Part shown: positions 6,342 through 13,765 of the stretch, piece after piece | Position numbering within the stretch: the stretch's first letter is position 1 | Layout: every line of letters starts with the position of its first letter | Source: Sphingobacterium daejeonense | GTDB lineage: Bacteria; Bacteroidota; Bacteroidia; Sphingobacteriales; Sphingobacteriaceae | Length of the DNA stretch: 32,000 nt | Assembly (NCBI RefSeq): GCF_042678525.1 | Contig: NZ_JBHTKY010000007.1 | Reading direction: 5' to 3' (one strand) | Notes under the pieces: generated by a model | What the model saw: only the letters and a program-made list of their open reading frames with translations | Told to the model about the DNA's origin: nothing | The model's database searches: none | Made by a program: the position numbers and the translations under genes

Positions 6342-6409
6342 TAATATTATTTTAAATTACATTAATGGCTAAAAAGGGTAGGAAGGGGGCATAAAAAAAT
6401 ACCAAGCGA

Positions 6410-6490
6410 TCATTGCTTTTCCCTACGCCGGTTTTAACCGTATCAGGTTCAAAGGGACTCTCTCAATTCTTTTCAGAATACCCCTAAAGC
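6410..6490 (-). promoter_or_regulatory. TPP (THI-box) riboswitch in the leader of thiM-thiE-thiD-tenA
   Basis: The minus-strand sequence reads AGGGGTATTCTGAAAAGAATTGAGAGAGTCCCTTTGAACCTGATACGGTTAAAACCGGCGTAGGGAAAAG. This contains the conserved CUGAGA, ACCCUUUGAACCUGAU-like and GCGUAGGGAA elements of the THI element, about 70 nt upstream of the thiM ATG. Confidence 0.85.
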
Positions 6491-6549
6491 CAAATCAAAG
6501 ATAGCCTAAACAATCTGCAAAGTCAAATTATAAAGGCTATCTCGAATTC

Positions 6550-8241: not shown

Positions 8242-10610
8242 TACTTACTAAGATTCTGTATAGCTTCCTTGAGAAGGTTTTCAACTTCAGTTTTTAATTC
8301 CTTGTTTTTGATTTTTAAGAGCTGTTTGTCTGTAATTTCAACTAATCTTTGGCCAATTAATTTTGTGTCAGGATTACTGCTGAAATAATTGGCAACCATC
8401 GCTCGTGCCAATGGATGATAATCATAAGTTACTGCCAATAACTGCAAATTAGCCTCATTCTTGATCGGATAATTCTTCTTCAAAACATCCGTGATTTTTT
8501 CATTTGAACTCGGAGAAACAGTTCTTAAGAATGGGTCTTCAAAATACCAAGTGTTATAGTCTCCTGTGCTGTCGGTATAATTTAAGATAGCTCCAGTCTC
8601 ATTATCATATTTCTTGCCATAAAATTTTTCCAAATCCCTTGCCAATTGTTCTTTTGACATACTTACTTGCCCTGGCGTTTCCCAAACATGGATTGCCATT
8701 CCATTAACCAAAGACTCCACAGTCATAATCTGTTTATCACCTGGCATAATATAGATGCCATCGAATTTTTGATTGATAAACGGCATCGTTAGAATATTCC
8801 CTGATTTTGCATCAACGACTTTTGCGGCAAAAGCAAATCTCTCACCATCATCCTGAACAAAAATCTTTGAATCATCATCCGAAAAGTGGAAATATTGCGT
8901 AAACCTACTGATCCGAATATTTTGGCCGAAGGATTTTTTGGTTTCCAAATTCCAAAGTCGCATGTGTGTAGCATCTTCAGATAAGGCCATTACGTTCCCC
9001 TCGTTATTGAAAACTATAAACGGCGCTGCAATGGTCTTAACCTGAAATATTGGTTTATAATCTGAAGTTTTCAAAACTTTCGCATCTCCACTTTTGCTGA
9101 TGATAACCAAGTATTCGCTAGTTGGACTAAAAGCGCCACTATTAATGGTTTCTTTTCCCTCGGCTAAGACTTTCTTGGATGCAATATCCATGATGGACCA
9201 GCCATCAGGTTTCACCATCACCACGGTTTTGAAATCTGGACTTACAGTAAACCCAGGAATATCTTGGTCAATCGCAAAATTAAGAGTCTGTTTACCGGTA
9301 GCAATATCCCAAGCAGCGAAACTTTTATTGCTTGTCCTGGCCATAACTTCGGTTTCGTCCTTATTGAAGATGTAAGTTTTTACTTGGGAATCAAATGGCT
9401 TCCCAACAGGTTTGCCATTGCTGGCATCAAAGAAATAGGTTTTGCCACTTATTCCCTTGACCAATATCTTTTTACTTTTTTGAAGAACTAAAAAAAGTGC
9501 TATTTCTTCTGGAATCTTGACGAACTCATTGTTTTTTTGACCTGTCTTTAAGTTCAACTTTGCCAACGCGGGTTTGCCCTTATATCTTAAAAATGCTTCA
9601 TCATTTGTGATTCCAGGATGGGCATGTGACAATCCTCCTTCTTCATAATATTGAGCCACCCTTAATGGGGTGGTGTTTTTGTTTTCTATAAATGTTTGCG
9701 AATTATTACTCACTAGATATTGGGACCAGTCGGGCGATGTTGCATCTTCGTCACTAGGATCCTTTTCCATCATTTTCATCAAGTCTGTCAAGAAGAAGAT
9801 ATTCCGCGGTAATTCTGTGTTCTTTAATGTAGATCCATTATTGGTATTCACCTGTACAATCTGAGCTTCATCACCGATATATAAATTACCATTGTCAGTG
9901 AATCCCACAAACTTGATGTAAAATGGACCAGGTAAAAACCAATTGATACCGTTGCTTTTATTAAAATAATATAAGCCTTCAGAATTACGAAAAGCAATTT
10001 GATTGCCATCCTTGCTAAAGGCAGGAGGGTTTGAACCCAATTTGGTCGACTTTTTGAAAATTTCCTTTGGTATATCGGTTGCCAAATCATAGATAGTCAA
10101 TTCATTACCTTCACTCAAGCTACGGCTGATATACAAAGTTTTTGAAGTCTTGTCAAAATAAGCTGATGTAGGGACCAGTTGATCATTTTTGATCAATATT
10201 TGCTCCTGTTTGGTTACTGTATTAAAAAAAATAACATCTTTTGATTGTTTGTTGATGACTATGAATTTAGAATCTGGAGAAATGGCGGTAAGTGAAATAA
10301 AACTACTATCAAGATTAGGACGAAGGATATCTTTTTTATCATTAGCCATATTATATCTGACGATTTCAAGATCAGAATTGACTACATAAGCATTGTCTTT
10401 CTCGTCAAATTGGGGGAATCGAGGCTGGTTAGAAGATATATCATCTCTTTGTACCAACTGTTTTCTGGTTGTTGCATCCCATACTTGCAATACATTGCTA
10501 TTGTCTCCAGCACTAGCAAATCCAACAATCCATTTACCATTGGGCGAGAATCTAATGCCGCCAAAATTTATATTGGGCATTCTGATCAAATCTTCTTGTA
10601 CCGCTAACAT
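8241..10610 (-). CDS. WD40/PD40-like beta-propeller repeat protein (789 aa), no signal peptide
   Basis: Recurring blade signatures: IRFSPNGKWIV...VWD, ISPDSKFIV, FSKDGNQIAF, VSPDFKTVV, FSPTSEYLV, HFSDDDSKIFV. The last ~170 aa are non-repeat. It starts at an ATG that overlaps the stop of the TIR ORF. Confidence 0.8.
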   Translation of the reverse strand: MLAVQEDLIRMPNINFGGIRFSPNGKWIVGFASAGDNSNVLQVWDATTRKQLVQRDDISSNQPRFPQFDEKDNAYVVNSDLEIVRYNMANDKKDILRPNLDSSFISLTAISPDSKFIVINKQSKDVIFFNTVTKQEQILIKNDQLVPTSAYFDKTSKTLYISRSLSEGNELTIYDLATDIPKEIFKKSTKLGSNPPAFSKDGNQIAFRNSEGLYYFNKSNGINWFLPGPFYIKFVGFTDNGNLYIGDEAQIVQVNTNNGSTLKNTELPRNIFFLTDLMKMMEKDPSDEDATSPDWSQYLVSNNSQTFIENKNTTPLRVAQYYEEGGLSHAHPGITNDEAFLRYKGKPALAKLNLKTGQKNNEFVKIPEEIALFLVLQKSKKILVKGISGKTYFFDASNGKPVGKPFDSQVKTYIFNKDETEVMARTSNKSFAAWDIATGKQTLNFAIDQDIPGFTVSPDFKTVVMVKPDGWSIMDIASKKVLAEGKETINSGAFSPTSEYLVIISKSGDAKVLKTSDYKPIFQVKTIAAPFIVFNNEGNVMALSEDATHMRLWNLETKKSFGQNIRISRFTQYFHFSDDDSKIFVQDDGERFAFAAKVVDAKSGNILTMPFINQKFDGIYIMPGDKQIMTVESLVNGMAIHVWETPGQVSMSKEQLARDLEKFYGKKYDNETGAILNYTDSTGDYNTWYFEDPFLRTVSPSSNEKITDVLKKNYPIKNEANLQLLAVTYDYHPLARAMVANYFSSNPDTKLIGQRLVEITDKQLLKIKNKELKTEVENLLKEAIQNLSK

Positions 10611-11575
10611 GGAATGAGCAATAAGGCTGCGCTTTCATCGCCCCGGCGTGTAGCTTCGGCAATATAAGCTGCACCGTCACCATACTCACTCTCCGTAAGC
10701 TTGTTTATTCCTGATGCATATAATGATTTTGCTAAATTTTTCAAGGCTGAATTCCTTTGATTCCATGCGAAGATGCCCGCCAATATTGCAATGACTCCTA
10801 ATGCCCCAATTGCTGTTGCAATCCTTTTGATATTCCTGTTTTTCTGCTTTATTTTTTCTAATTGATAGGCTTGGTCTCGTTTGGTTAATTCTGCCAATGG
10901 CACACCTAAGATTCCAGAAATAATCTTTAACAATGCAAGGTCGAGTCGTTTTTTGTATTCATCGACCAATCCTTTTATTTGATGATTTGGTGTACCTTTA
11001 TCATGCAAATATCTTCTGTATCCTTCTGCTGAGGTGAACCCTTCTTCTTGCGTGTTTGGAATTCTGACATCTGCAGCCAATACTTCCTCGGGTTGATCAT
11101 AAAGGATTTTTCCAGTTTCGTCAATGTTATACCTCAACTCATCAGGAAAACATTGGGCATCGGTATTTTCCTTACCATATTCTGGTTCGCCTTTTATGAT
11201 CAGAGCGATAATTTTTTGAGATTTTCCAGTTTGCTTAAAATATTTAAGTTCATCCCGTACATAAGTTGATCTTGCTGATTTGGGAGAACTCAAATAAATA
11301 AGGAATTCAGAACGGTCTAAGGCTGATGTTAAGGAACCACTAAGGCTAGAACTAGCTGATAATTCTTTTTCATCTTGAAAAACAGGATATATCTGCCTGG
11401 GGATTTCTTCGCCGGCAGCATTCTTCTTTCCAATTAAATCCTCGGGGATTTCATAAGTTTCTAATGCATGATGCAACCAATCTGCCCACTTTCTGCCTTC
11501 CCCTTGATTGTCACTATGGCTATAACTAATAAATGCTTTGTATTTTTTTGTTAGGTCCTGATCTTGATTTTCCAT
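10604..11575 (-). CDS. TIR domain protein with one C-terminal TM helix (possibly the N-terminal part of a split TIR-TM-propeller gene)
   Basis: TIR_2-like motifs: KAFISYSHSD, YPVFQDEKEL, FLIYLSSPKSARSTYVRDELKYF (Glu in the position of the NADase catalytic Glu). TM helix IATAIGALGVIAILAGIFAW (aa 252-271), followed by only 52 aa. There is a 7-nt overlap (ATGTTAG) with the next ORF. Confidence 0.8.
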   Translation of the reverse strand: MENQDQDLTKKYKAFISYSHSDNQGEGRKWADWLHHALETYEIPEDLIGKKNAAGEEIPRQIYPVFQDEKELSASSSLSGSLTSALDRSEFLIYLSSPKSARSTYVRDELKYFKQTGKSQKIIALIIKGEPEYGKENTDAQCFPDELRYNIDETGKILYDQPEEVLAADVRIPNTQEEGFTSAEGYRRYLHDKGTPNHQIKGLVDEYKKRLDLALLKIISGILGVPLAELTKRDQAYQLEKIKQKNRNIKRIATAIGALGVIAILAGIFAWNQRNSALKNLAKSLYASGINKLTESEYGDGAAYIAEATRRGDESAALLLIPC

Positions 11576-11826
11576 AAATACAATTTTTGGTTGAGTTGTC
11601 GATTTTCAATAGACAAAAACCAAACCTTTTTCTATAAATTTTAATAAAGAGTGATAAAAAACTGTTTAGTATTTAATTTGATTAAGAAAAAATCAATAAT
11701 TTTTAATTGATGTTATAACGTTATTTCAACTATTTTAAAAATTATGTAATCATTTTCGAACAGGCAGTTGAACAATTTCGGAAGGATTTTTTCTTATTGT
11801 CCTGAATGCTGTTTAATATACTCTTA

Positions 11827-11980
11827 TTCCACTCTTGTTCCACTCTCGTTCCACTCTGAGTCTTCTTTCCTTCGGACCTCGTTCGGACCTTGTTCGGGTG
11901 TTTTCCGAAGCAGCTCCGAACGAGGTCCGAACAAAGTCCGAACAAGAGACGAAGGAGAGTGGAAGGAGGTAGGAAGGAGA
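11827..11980. repeat. 11-nt periodic tandem repeats arranged as a long imperfect palindrome
   Basis: TTCCACTCT at 11827, 11838 and 11849 (period 11). TTCGGACC at 11871 and 11882, plus TTCGG at 11893 (period 11). These are then mirrored as CCGAA 11905 and 11916, GGTCCGAA 11924, AGTCCGAA 11935 and AGAGTGGAA 11956. There is a perfect 16-bp arm pair: TTCGGACCTCGTTCGG (11871-11886) with CCGAACGAGGTCCGAA (11916-11931). Confidence 0.85.
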
Positions 11981-12027
11981 ATAGCAGAAACCTTGCAGAC
12001 TTGGAGGCCACGATGGCCATTGTTGCT

Positions 12028-12064
12028 GTTCCTGGTCGCCATGGTTGGTGTCGTTACCAACCAT
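12028..12064. repeat. Partial copy of the hairpin repeat family (GTTCCTGGTCGCC + ATGGTTGGT/ACCAACCAT hairpin)
   Basis: GTTCCTGGTCGCCATGGTTGGTGTCGTTACCAACCAT. It has the same leader and stem as the copies at 12095-12167 and 12496-12570, with a different loop. Confidence 0.8.
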
Positions 12065-12094
12065 CAATCGACGCCATGGCTGGTATCATTGTTG

Positions 12095-12167
12095 CCCATG
12101 GTTTTTGGCAGCACGAAAGGGGTATGGTATCCCTGGACGCCATGGTTGGTGTCCTCACCAACCATCT
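12095..12167. repeat. Dispersed ~75-nt repeat, copy A, ending in the 10-bp hairpin ATGGTTGGTG-TCCT-CACCAACCAT
   Basis: CCCATGGTTTTTGGCAGCACGAAAGGGGTATGGTATCCCTGGACGCCATGGTTGGTGTCCTCACCAACCATC. It aligns colinearly with copy B at roughly 80 percent identity (by eye), and the terminal hairpin (12142-12165) is identical. Confidence 0.85.
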
Positions 12168-12495
12168 TCATCTGATCTAACTTTCACTAATGAATAATGC
12201 CATTTCATGGCAAGATGCAGTTACTTTTGAGGCGCAAAAGTAACCAAAACGCTTGCTCATTTAAGGTGGCTTGTCGCACAAGTCCAACGCACATGGACAA
12301 AAATGCCTTATTGCCGAGGATGCCGTTCTAATCAATTATCTCTTTTGAGGAGATAATTGCTTGAAAGCATCCAAGGGCAAGGCAGACGCACAGAGGCCGC
12401 GGCATTTTTTCCATCTTTCCGCCACTGAAAATGAGCGGGATTCGGCTTCGAATAAACAATTGGGTTGCAAAACGTCAGGGTTGGTGTTCCTGGTC

Positions 12496-12570
12496 GCCAT
12501 GGTTGCTGGCAGCTCGAAAGCCATGGATGGTGTTCCTGGTCGCCATGGTTGGTGTCCTCACCAACCATCA
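12496..12570. repeat. Dispersed ~75-nt repeat, copy B, ending in the 10-bp hairpin ATGGTTGGTG-TCCT-CACCAACCAT
   Basis: GCCATGGTTGCTGGCAGCTCGAAAGCCATGGATGGTGTTCCTGGTCGCCATGGTTGGTGTCCTCACCAACCATC, with the hairpin at 12545-12568. Confidence 0.85.
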
Positions 12571-12630
12571 TTTTTGATAGTCTACGTTGCACTAGGTGAC
12601 CTTGGATTTTTAGTGGCAGGTGGGGACACC

Positions 12631-12712
12631 TGCCACGGCGAGCAGAGACACCTGCCTCCGCTACCAGACACTACTGCCACGGCGAGCAGAATCTCCTGCC
12701 GCGGCGGTTAGG
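12631..12712. repeat. Two tandem ~44-nt units sharing the core TGCCACGGCGAGCAGA...CCTGCC
   Basis: TGCCACGGCGAGCAGA occurs at 12631-12646 and 12675-12690 (spacing 44). Both are followed by NNNNCCTGCC. They are preceded by the hairpin GGCAGGTG-GGGA-CACCTGCC (12615-12634). Confidence 0.8.
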
Positions 12713-12716
12713 CCCT

Positions 12717-12760
12717 AAAAACGAGAAAAGCTCGGATTTCACCGAGCTTTTCTATTTTAT
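12717..12760 (-). terminator. Rho-independent terminator of yceI
   Basis: GAAAAGCTCGG (12725-12735), loop ATTTCA, CCGAGCTTTTC (12742-12752). On the minus strand the stem is followed by TCGTTTTT, and it lies about 20 nt after the yceI stop. Confidence 0.8.
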
Positions 12761-12771
12761 AAAACTATTAT

Positions 12772-13299
12772 TTATGCAAGAACGAATTGTAAGTCAGCTT
12801 GAAACTTAACATCTTCACTTACCATTACTCCACCAGTTTCCAGCGCAGCATTCCAAGTCAATCCAAATTCATTACGGTTGATTTTTCCTGTTACAGTGTA
12901 ACCAGCTTTTTGGTTACCCCAAGGATCTTTACCAATACCACCGAATTCTACATCAAATGTTACCGGTTTTGTAACCTCTTTAATCGTTAATTCACCCGAC
13001 AATTTATATTCATCTTCGTCAGTTTTTTTGATTCCTGTAGACACAAATTTAATGTCTGGGAATTGAGTTACAGCGAAGAAATCTTCACTTTTCAAGTGCT
13101 GATCACGTTGGCTGTTTTTAGTGTTGATAGAATCAGTTTTGATTTCTACTGATACATGTTTTGCTGCATCTAAATCGTCAGAGCTGTTATCAACTACTAC
13201 ATTGAAATTTTCAAAATGACCCTTAACGGTAGAGATCATCATGTGTTTTACTTTAAATTCAATTTCACTGTGTGCGGTGTCTAAGTTCCAAGTTGCCAT
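12772..13299 (-). CDS. yceI: YceI-like (polyisoprenoid-binding) family protein
   Basis: WNLDTAHSEIEFKVKHMMISTVKGHFENF, SINTKNSQRDQHLKSEDFF and LSGELTIKEVTKPVTFDVEF match the YceI family signature. Confidence 0.85.
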   Translation of the reverse strand: MATWNLDTAHSEIEFKVKHMMISTVKGHFENFNVVVDNSSDDLDAAKHVSVEIKTDSINTKNSQRDQHLKSEDFFAVTQFPDIKFVSTGIKKTDEDEYKLSGELTIKEVTKPVTFDVEFGGIGKDPWGNQKAGYTVTGKINRNEFGLTWNAALETGGVMVSEDVKFQADLQFVLA

Positions 13300-13514: not shown

Positions 13515-13548
13515 AAAGGAGCAGATTTTCTGCTCCTTTTTTATTTTA
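13515..13548 (+). terminator. Rho-independent terminator retained after the efflux-gene remnant
   Basis: GGAGCAGA (13518-13525), loop TTT, TCTGCTCC (13529-13536), followed by TTTTTTATTTT. Confidence 0.75.
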
Positions 13549-13765
13549 AAGTTTTCAGGAAAACGCCGTATCGGTTGAATACTAAGCTCTTATAGAGATA
13601 ATCAAAGAAGTCAGGTAACGATTTGGTAACGGTGCTTATTGCTTTGTTTTTCAACGTGTTTCCGTTAGTTCATAGCAAATATAAATAATTTTAGACCATA
13701 GTTAATAATCCATTTTTTTTTTTATTTAAAAAAAATTAAACTAACCTTTTTAATACAAACACCAA

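Follow-up and report, generated by a model that had tools for sequence, protein, structure and literature searches.

A GC-rich non-coding block of Sphingobacterium daejeonense as a probable mosaic of three dispersed palindromic repeat families

The GC-rich block at positions 11760-12720 of the stretch analysed here, a 32,000-nucleotide window of contig NZ_JBHTKY010000007.1 from Sphingobacterium daejeonense (RefSeq assembly GCF_042678525.1), lies upstream of a gene for a TIR-domain protein. We consider it highly probable that this block is a non-coding mosaic of three unrelated, dispersed palindromic repeat families, similar to a bacterial interspersed mosaic element (BIME). One family consists of repetitive extragenic palindromes (REPs), and the other two are referred to here as element A and element B. 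The block is ordinary in kind, a collection of REPs and two other palindromic repeat families; the novelty is in its membership, which comprises a Sphingobacterium system of REPs and a REP-associated tyrosine transposase (RAYT) together with two undescribed repeat families. Our literature search returned nothing on repeats in the genus Sphingobacterium. The block as such probably has no function of its own.

Composition and modular make-up of the block

The genome (4.07 Mb) has a G+C content of 37.1%, and windows of 961 nucleotides taken across it average 37.1% with a standard deviation of 3.9. The block stands at 49.6% G+C, a value equalled or exceeded in just 1.06% of genome windows of the same size. 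Its high G+C content follows from the make-up of the repeats, since their stems are GC-rich. An initial annotation, made from the sequence alone, had described a GC-rich block with no credible open reading frame (ORF) and an abundance of hairpins, and all of this is borne out. The hand counts of G+C offered in its support (34 of 60 at 12481-12540 and 9 of 60 at 11641-11700) are exact, and the three hairpins that it cited are present at 12198-12212, 12220-12244 and 12333-12359; all three prove to be parts of element B. The ORFs of the block reach at most 135 amino acids and overlap one another on both strands, and the seven that were compared with Pfam gave no match at E ≤ 1. There are no credible genes in the block, and no protein-coding homologue of it was found.

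Evidence for a mosaic comes from comparing the block with its own genome, a copy-number comparison that the initial annotation had proposed. Pieces of the block recur throughout the genome (123 matches), and the coverage by high-scoring segment pairs is strongly modular: approximately 88 at 11820-11975, 12 at 12190-12435, 50 at each of the REP segments 12136-12170 and 12536-12573, and 38 at the REP segment 12606-12640. When four block modules were mapped, they fell at about 96 loci outside long ORFs, separately and in varying orders. Other composite clusters of 0.7-1 kb hold the same modules rearranged (C2:194287-195243, C15:59781-60673, C12:115075-115817 and C19:87469-88222), and the block as a whole unit is present in a single copy. 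Many small contigs of the assembly end in block repeats, as is expected of multi-copy DNA. Of the possibilities raised by the initial annotation, these results favor a cluster of elements resembling REPs or miniature inverted-repeat transposable elements (MITEs): all of the GC-rich pieces belong to dispersed repeat families, and a RAYT-like gene accompanied by the same REPs is found elsewhere in the genome. The true bounds of the repeat-rich part are approximately 11812-12710, and the own-genome search found both the AT-rich left part and the terminator of the neighboring yceI gene to be unique. It is in the tolerant spacer between that terminator and the promoter of the TIR gene that the repeats would accrete.

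Element A fills the left end of the repeat-rich part (11812..11984). It is an imperfect foldback of about 170 nucleotides, centered on 11893-11910, whose 79-nucleotide arms are 71% complementary and consist of tandem 11-nucleotide units (ACTCTYGTTCC, TTCGGACCTYG and their complements); the 11-nucleotide period was confirmed. The genome contains 36 copies, which differ in length by whole 11-nucleotide units and often follow T-runs or terminators. Only weak relatives were found, in six other genomes of the genus. An alignment of 35 copies showed no target-site duplication, and searches of the genome found neither a transposase-bearing parent of element A nor a longer element sharing the ends of A or B. 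We infer how the two elements move: element A would expand and contract by whole 11-nucleotide units, and element B, described below, would be modular and non-autonomous, with some trans-acting partner and with a fold that selection maintains. Directly to the right of element A there are often arrays of 7-nucleotide units, GAGATNT or AGACANN, for example at C31:23163, C3:31026 and C13:98073; these add another kind of short-period repeat to the intergenic DNA of this genome.

The REP family and a candidate transposase

The REPs belong to one family, present in two orientations, with the pattern 5'-[C/T/A]GCC-NTGGNNGGTG-TCYY-CACCNNCCAN. We counted 136 REP hairpins in the genome (about 130 copies). 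Eight stem variants, represented by 45, 17, 14, 12, 5, 4, 3 and 3 copies, all remain perfectly complementary, and an asymmetric NGCC tag is conserved on the 5' side, outside the stem, in 116 of 132 copies. The foot of the stem is GTGG...CCAC, a "double foot," in roughly one-third of the copies; the largest subfamily has ATGG or CTGG. The exact pattern gives 127 matches in this genome and none in a control read backwards. A search of 121 other genomes of the genus, 24 of them carrying other RAYT-like genes, returned no match to the exact pattern, and the family is private to S. daejeonense.

Three plus-strand REPs and one minus-strand REP lie in the block, together with 22-nucleotide tandem arrays of half-REPs. 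To the left of element B, on the plus strand, are an imperfect pattern match, CGCC-ATGGTTGGTG-TCGT-TACCAACCAT (12037..12064; repeat family D1), a run of degenerate REP-arm fragments (12071..12130; repeat family D2, 65-73% identical to 12472-12566), and a REP that matches both the pattern and other loci of the genome, CGCC-ATGGTTGGTG-TCCT-CACCAACCAT (12138..12165). With a linker of about 30 nucleotides and element B, this last REP makes up a composite unit that recurs at C1:189478 and C39:17509 with 91% identity; with three copies of this REP-30 nucleotide-B arrangement, linkers are partly conserved. To the right of element B, repeat analysis identified a 22-nucleotide plus-strand tandem repeat of 3.4 copies, built from partial left REP arms (GGTTGGTGTTCCTGGTCGCCAT; 12479..12555). 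The REP at 12541..12568, a plus-strand pattern match followed by a T-run, is the left half of the one inverted REP pair of the window, a doublet like those named REPINs. The right half, 44 nucleotides away, is a minus-strand REP of the double-foot type (GTGG...CCAC), GTGGCAGGTG-GGGA-CACCTGCCAC-GGCG (12613..12640), and its partial right arms (GACACCTGCCACGGCGAGCAGA) form a second 22-nucleotide plus-strand tandem repeat of 3.7 copies at 12625..12706, which as an array is single copy.

Only one locus of the genome, C4:44075-44524, resembles a Y1 transposase gene. Its frame spans 186 codons, of which codon 16 is an in-frame TGA. Beyond this stop, the frame matches the NCBIfam model NF047646, "REP-associated tyrosine transposase," with 58 bits (E = 8e-16); read through the TGA, the match rises to 68 bits (E = 1.6e-18), relative to a curated cut-off of 80 bits. 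The motifs NHVH, WQ and YIHKNP are present, and arrays of block-type REPs, often inverted doublets with 35-nucleotide spacers, lie on both sides of the gene. It seems most likely that a RAYT-type HUH/Y1 transposase, encoded by this single-copy gene, spread the REPs described here by cutting and joining hairpins in single-stranded DNA. Since the gene has an in-frame TGA, REP mobility may now be extinct. In the REP doublets beside the gene (L021 1100-1135), the spacer, CTTGCTCATGYTTAATTATACAGTAARGTGG, has CTTGCTCAT..TTAA..GGTGG in common with the 5' strand of the outer stem of element B (12250-12270), a resemblance that could reflect common descent or coincidence.

Among known systems, the closest are the REP/BIME systems, or REPtrons, of Enterobacteria and Pseudomonas, in which the transposase is the Y1 HUH protein RAYT/TnpA_REP (PMC6006769, PMC3733652). 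The repeats of S. daejeonense are likewise GC-rich palindromes of 24-28 nucleotides with an asymmetric tag, spread as single and clustered extragenic copies (approximately 130), their stem variants are kept by compensatory change, the family is restricted to one species, and a single-copy RAYT-like gene lies inside an array of these REPs. Among the Bacteroidetes, TnpA_REP subclasses 2.4 and 2.6 have been defined (Quentin et al.), and a "double-foot" REP has been described for subclass 2.4 (PMC6006769); the motifs of our RAYT-like gene fit these subclasses, and the GTGG...CCAC subfamily is a REP of the double-foot kind. The differences are that the commonest stems here start with ATGG or CTGG instead of GT[AG]G, that the NGCC tag lies outside the stem, and that the RAYT-like gene has an in-frame stop, TGA, and does not reach the cut-off of NCBIfam. 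Unlike classical BIMEs, the cluster also includes the half-REP tandem arrays and two unrelated repeat families. The inverted REP pairs with spacers of 35-45 nucleotides, at 12541-12640 and around the RAYT-like gene, resemble REPINs (Bertels & Rainey, PMC3116915), as does the long foldback shape, with compensatory changes, of elements A and B. However, many REPs here are singlets or occur in same-orientation runs, and element B is not a pair of REPs, branches in its 5' part, and is also present where the genome has no Y1 transposase. In sum, the locus documents a REP/RAYT system in Sphingobacterium, with species-private REPs, an interrupted RAYT gene and half-REP tandem arrays.

Structure, distribution and possible roles of element B

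Element B (12198..12456, plus strand) is a repeat of about 260 nucleotides with several helices; it was found in 11 full copies with 77-92% identity, and is described by our covariance model R1. In the order of the plus strand, it consists of a small 5' hairpin (12198-12212), a 10-bp "head" hairpin, GTTACTTTTG-AGGCG-CAAAAGTAAC (12220-12244), a CAAAA linker followed by the loop complement CGCTT (12245-12254), and a long rod whose closing stem pairs 12255-12270 with 12421-12436 and which ends in an apical hairpin (12333-12359). The rod, about 54 bp in seven stacked helices, is closed by GCTCATTT..GGTGGC / GCCAC..AAATGAGC. Full copies share sharply delimited similarity, from TGCCATT... to ...GAGCGGG.

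The fold of this element is kept by compensatory change across genera. In an alignment of 42 sequences fitted to the covariance model, 92.7% of cells are paired, compared with 38-47% when the partners are slid; changes on both sides occur in 65 of 70 base pairs, and the covariation score is 0.417 versus approximately 0.05 in the control. A model-free analysis (MAFFT/RNAalifold) of 16 sequences from five genera recovered three helices, in which 21 of 28 pairs are compensatory. The head adds a feature of its own: base pairing links its loop to the nucleotides just beyond the CAAAA linker, 5 nucleotides downstream, in at least 12 sequence variants (AGGCG/CGCTT, AAGCC/GGCTT, AAGGG/CCCTT, AGAC/GTCT, AGCCC/GGGCT, AGCAC/GTGCT and others). 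The mean run of such pairs is 4.2, as opposed to 3.27 ± 0.11 with permuted partners, and none of 1000 permutations reached so high a value. Where the top of the stem is CTTGG instead of TTTTG, the linker is CAAGG instead of CAAAA. Two geometries were considered for this three-way co-variation and set aside. A classical pseudoknot of the H type, in which the 10-bp stem would be combined with a 5-nucleotide linker and a 5-nucleotide loop paired throughout, seems sterically unlikely, and a purine-motif triplex is at odds with the CAAGG variants. Unpaired motifs are conserved as well (TCGCAC, CGCACA and an apical loop TTTNGAN), as is one plus-strand G.U/G.T pair, in 28 of 38 sequences. Over all helices G.U pairs outnumber A.C pairs, 85 to 51, an excess driven by three positions; elsewhere A.C exceeds G.U, 51 to 31, and the helices of B outside those three positions therefore behave as Watson-Crick helices on both strands.

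The covariance model detects the B family in 29 of 122 genomes of the genus, often in at least 16 copies, and BLAST finds about 27 full copies in the complete genome G085; full-length relatives exist beyond the genus in the Sphingobacteriaceae, in Daejeonella, Pedobacter and Mucilaginibacter. In G085, one full B is directly preceded by 6.6 repeats of a 64-nucleotide unit containing the head hairpin, and downstream of another B come 3.9 repeats of a 162-nucleotide unit from the 3' part of the element. Such tandem arrays of sub-modules occupy L184 157-574 and L185 634-1258. In another genome (G065, L036 1501-2879), five copies within 1.4 kb alternate strictly in orientation, head-to-head and tail-to-tail, and lie about 35 nucleotides apart, as REPs do in a BIME. 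The head hairpin occurs more widely than the rest of the element: a pattern of 25 specified bases, covering its 25 nucleotides, matched 96 stretches in 596 Gb, with a chance expectation that we estimate at approximately 0.001, and is letter-identical in assemblies of several phyla. The matches include assemblies labeled Algoriphagus, Alistipes/Rikenellaceae, Saccharibacteria, Spirochaetota, Proteobacteria and Bacillota, and in them the head caps different, shorter bodies. Some of these labels on metagenome-assembled genomes (MAGs) may reflect mis-binning; a Portibacter contig, for example, looks like Sphingobacterium sequence. At the ends of Alistipes MAG contigs (L099, L104, L127 and L131), a multi-copy element of about 480 nucleotides breaks the assembly; it carries the head hairpin and a look-alike second hairpin, GCTACCTTTTG-TCGG-CACAAAAGGTAGC, and its neighbors are ordinary genes such as queA.

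No partner enzyme of element B emerged. Among the neighbors at 80 loci there was no recurrent protein; here, QueA and a dipeptidase were considered as candidates, and viral contigs and plasmids contained no B copies. RAYT presence coincides with B in just 11 of the 29 B-positive genomes, and none of the B copies adjoins a RAYT or IS200 TnpA gene. No TnpB domain was found in this genome. DUF559-like ORFs occur here (G000) and in G085, G105 and G061, with no B or head hairpin within 1.5 kb of them. In close relatives, an orthologous slot after a terminator holds different fillers in G085 and G105 than in G061. The search for an empty site of B found no clean one, and since the slot in G061 holds a different filler, a target-site duplication is unreadable there.

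Two readings of element B other than a selfish repeat deserve consideration. In one, the many copies of B, and with them the core of the block, encode a functional non-coding RNA whose head resembles a pseudoknot; it would be transcribed from many loci or carried in 3' untranslated regions. We regard this as rather unlikely, although the arguments for it are substantial: strong covariation in all 10 helices, a head loop that covaries with the bases after the linker, the conserved unpaired motifs and plus-strand G.U pair, the full-length relatives in three other genera, and a head hairpin identical across phyla. Set against these are the lack of any Rfam family (a search with 18 related loci gave no match), copy ends that show no consistent promoter or terminator and no shared promoter-like motif, and the absence of any orientation bias relative to flanking genes. 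The patchy distribution is typical of mobile repeats, in that 29 of 122 species have the element, each genome holds 10-27 copies, and there are both tandem sub-module arrays and arrays of alternating orientation; the rod has the foldback shape of REPINs and MITEs, and the helices, outside three positions, are Watson-Crick on both strands. A mobile or selfish element B is in keeping with this patchy presence, with the many copies per genome and both kinds of array, with the missing gene polarity and the alternative slot fillers, and with helices that hold on both strands.

The other reading is one that we would also put well short of likely. Element B may belong to an undescribed class of structured nucleic-acid modules, marked by the invariant head GTTACTTTTG-N5-CAAAAGTAAC followed by CAAAA, a loop that pairs with the next 3-6 bases, and a linker that co-varies with the top of the stem; the head would be read in single-stranded form by a widely conserved protein of cells or mobile elements, or by the RNA itself. 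Such a conserved partner would explain why the same head sits on unrelated bodies in the Sphingobacteriaceae and in the other assemblies named above. The ends of IS200/IS605 elements combine a hairpin with guide/cleavage-site base pairing and are read by TnpA on single-stranded DNA. The head of B, an invariant hairpin with a short covarying pairing nearby, follows the same logic as these ends and those of palindrome-associated transposable elements (PATEs), but its pairing partner is the hairpin loop and not a 5' foot, and no TnpA or TnpB is linked to it. There is also a resemblance to the BOX elements of Streptococcus pneumoniae (boxA-boxB(n)-boxC) and to MITEs such as Correia and BrickBuilt, in that modules mix and match, internal units vary in number, and the copies are intergenic, form strong secondary structures and break the assembly. 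In contrast to these, element B has no demonstrated terminal inverted repeats or target-site duplication and no related autonomous insertion sequence, and it consists of other sequences in another phylum. What makes the element worth pursuing is that compensatory change maintains its 260-nucleotide fold in several genera and that its head is the same, letter for letter, in several phyla; knowing what reads the head would help to explain how such repeats spread when no transposase is linked to them.

The locus in relatives and neighboring features

The spacer that contains the block (11576-12771) separates the TIR-domain gene (10604-11575, minus strand, start codon at 11575) from yceI, a YceI-family gene (12772-13299, minus strand, stop codon at 12772; YceI domain, E = 2.4e-48). 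Its first part, 11576..11811, is the upstream region of the TIR gene, an AT-rich sequence that lies outside the repeats and is single copy in the genome. At the right edge of the block, directly after the yceI stop codon, a bidirectional hairpin resembling an intrinsic terminator (12724..12753) has a 12-bp stem and T-runs on both strands. The TIR gene and yceI are neighbors in at least seven other species (G046, G047, G061, G062, G038, G105 and G085), with spacers of 0.5, 1.2 or approximately 4.2 kb. In the closest relative, G046 (77-82% identity), the two genes are about 480 nucleotides apart, and between them are an AT-rich spacer, with which 11576..11811 is alignable in kind, and a simple terminator, with no repeats. 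Since the two genes are neighbors in relatives with spacers of varying length, the gene neighborhood predates the block, and since the block is missing from the nearest relative, it is a lineage-specific accretion and not the vehicle of the TIR operon. This recent, lineage-specific origin is consistent with a REP family private to the species.

These comparisons bear directly on what else the block might be. The initial annotation had also entertained a recombination hotspot that brought in the TIR operon, an idea that finds no support, since the TIR gene and yceI are neighbors in several species and adjacent without the block in the closest. More broadly, it is very improbable that the block is foreign DNA, a scar of the recombination by which the TIR operon was acquired, or a decayed gene. 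Its atypical composition and its position directly upstream of a defence-like TIR operon invite such an explanation, but the gene neighborhood predates it, the block has no counterpart in the closest relative, its GC-rich parts are all dispersed repeats native to this genome, and neither protein similarity nor plasmid or viral matches were found. The remaining option, that the entire block of about 1 kb forms a single large structured non-coding RNA like GOLLD, ROOL or OLE, is close to refuted. A GC-rich, hairpin-rich region in an AT-rich genome, with a plus-strand terminator-like hairpin at its 3' edge, is what such an RNA might look like; the modules, however, are independent and occur in different orders at about 96 loci, the unit as a whole is single copy and missing from the nearest relative, and REP copies with their tandem fragments account for most of its length. 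Rfam 15 gave no relevant match in the window, either at the gathering threshold or at E ≤ 10, and one module of the block, element B, does have a strongly covarying structure.

Several points must be counted against the mosaic of dispersed repeats. The candidate RAYT-like gene is interrupted and too weak a match for the curated NCBIfam cut-off, and the commonest REP subfamily has the foot ATGG/CTGG and not the canonical GT[AG]G. Element B shows no target-site duplication, no terminal inverted repeat and no autonomous parent, and two genomes rich in it, G085 (about 27 copies) and G105, gave no match to Y1_Tnp and are without any Y1 transposase. Finally, the maintenance of B across genera and its conserved G.U/G.T pair could mean a host function instead of selfish spread. 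For practical purposes, we suggest that GC-rich non-coding islands of this genome be masked as repeats and not mined for genes or for the boundaries of defence islands; the block is uninformative on the origin of the neighboring TIR operon.

Two further features of the window lie outside the block. An Rfam search identified a thiamine pyrophosphate (TPP) riboswitch on the minus strand at 6403-6495 (73.7 bits). Between yceI and a gene for a SNF2-type helicase is a non-coding stretch of about 155 nucleotides (13531-13695), for which we found no Rfam match and no fold signal. This stretch recurs, with 82-96% identity and sometimes twice per genome, at unrelated loci of many other Sphingobacterium species, and it may be the end or the attachment site of an integrative element.

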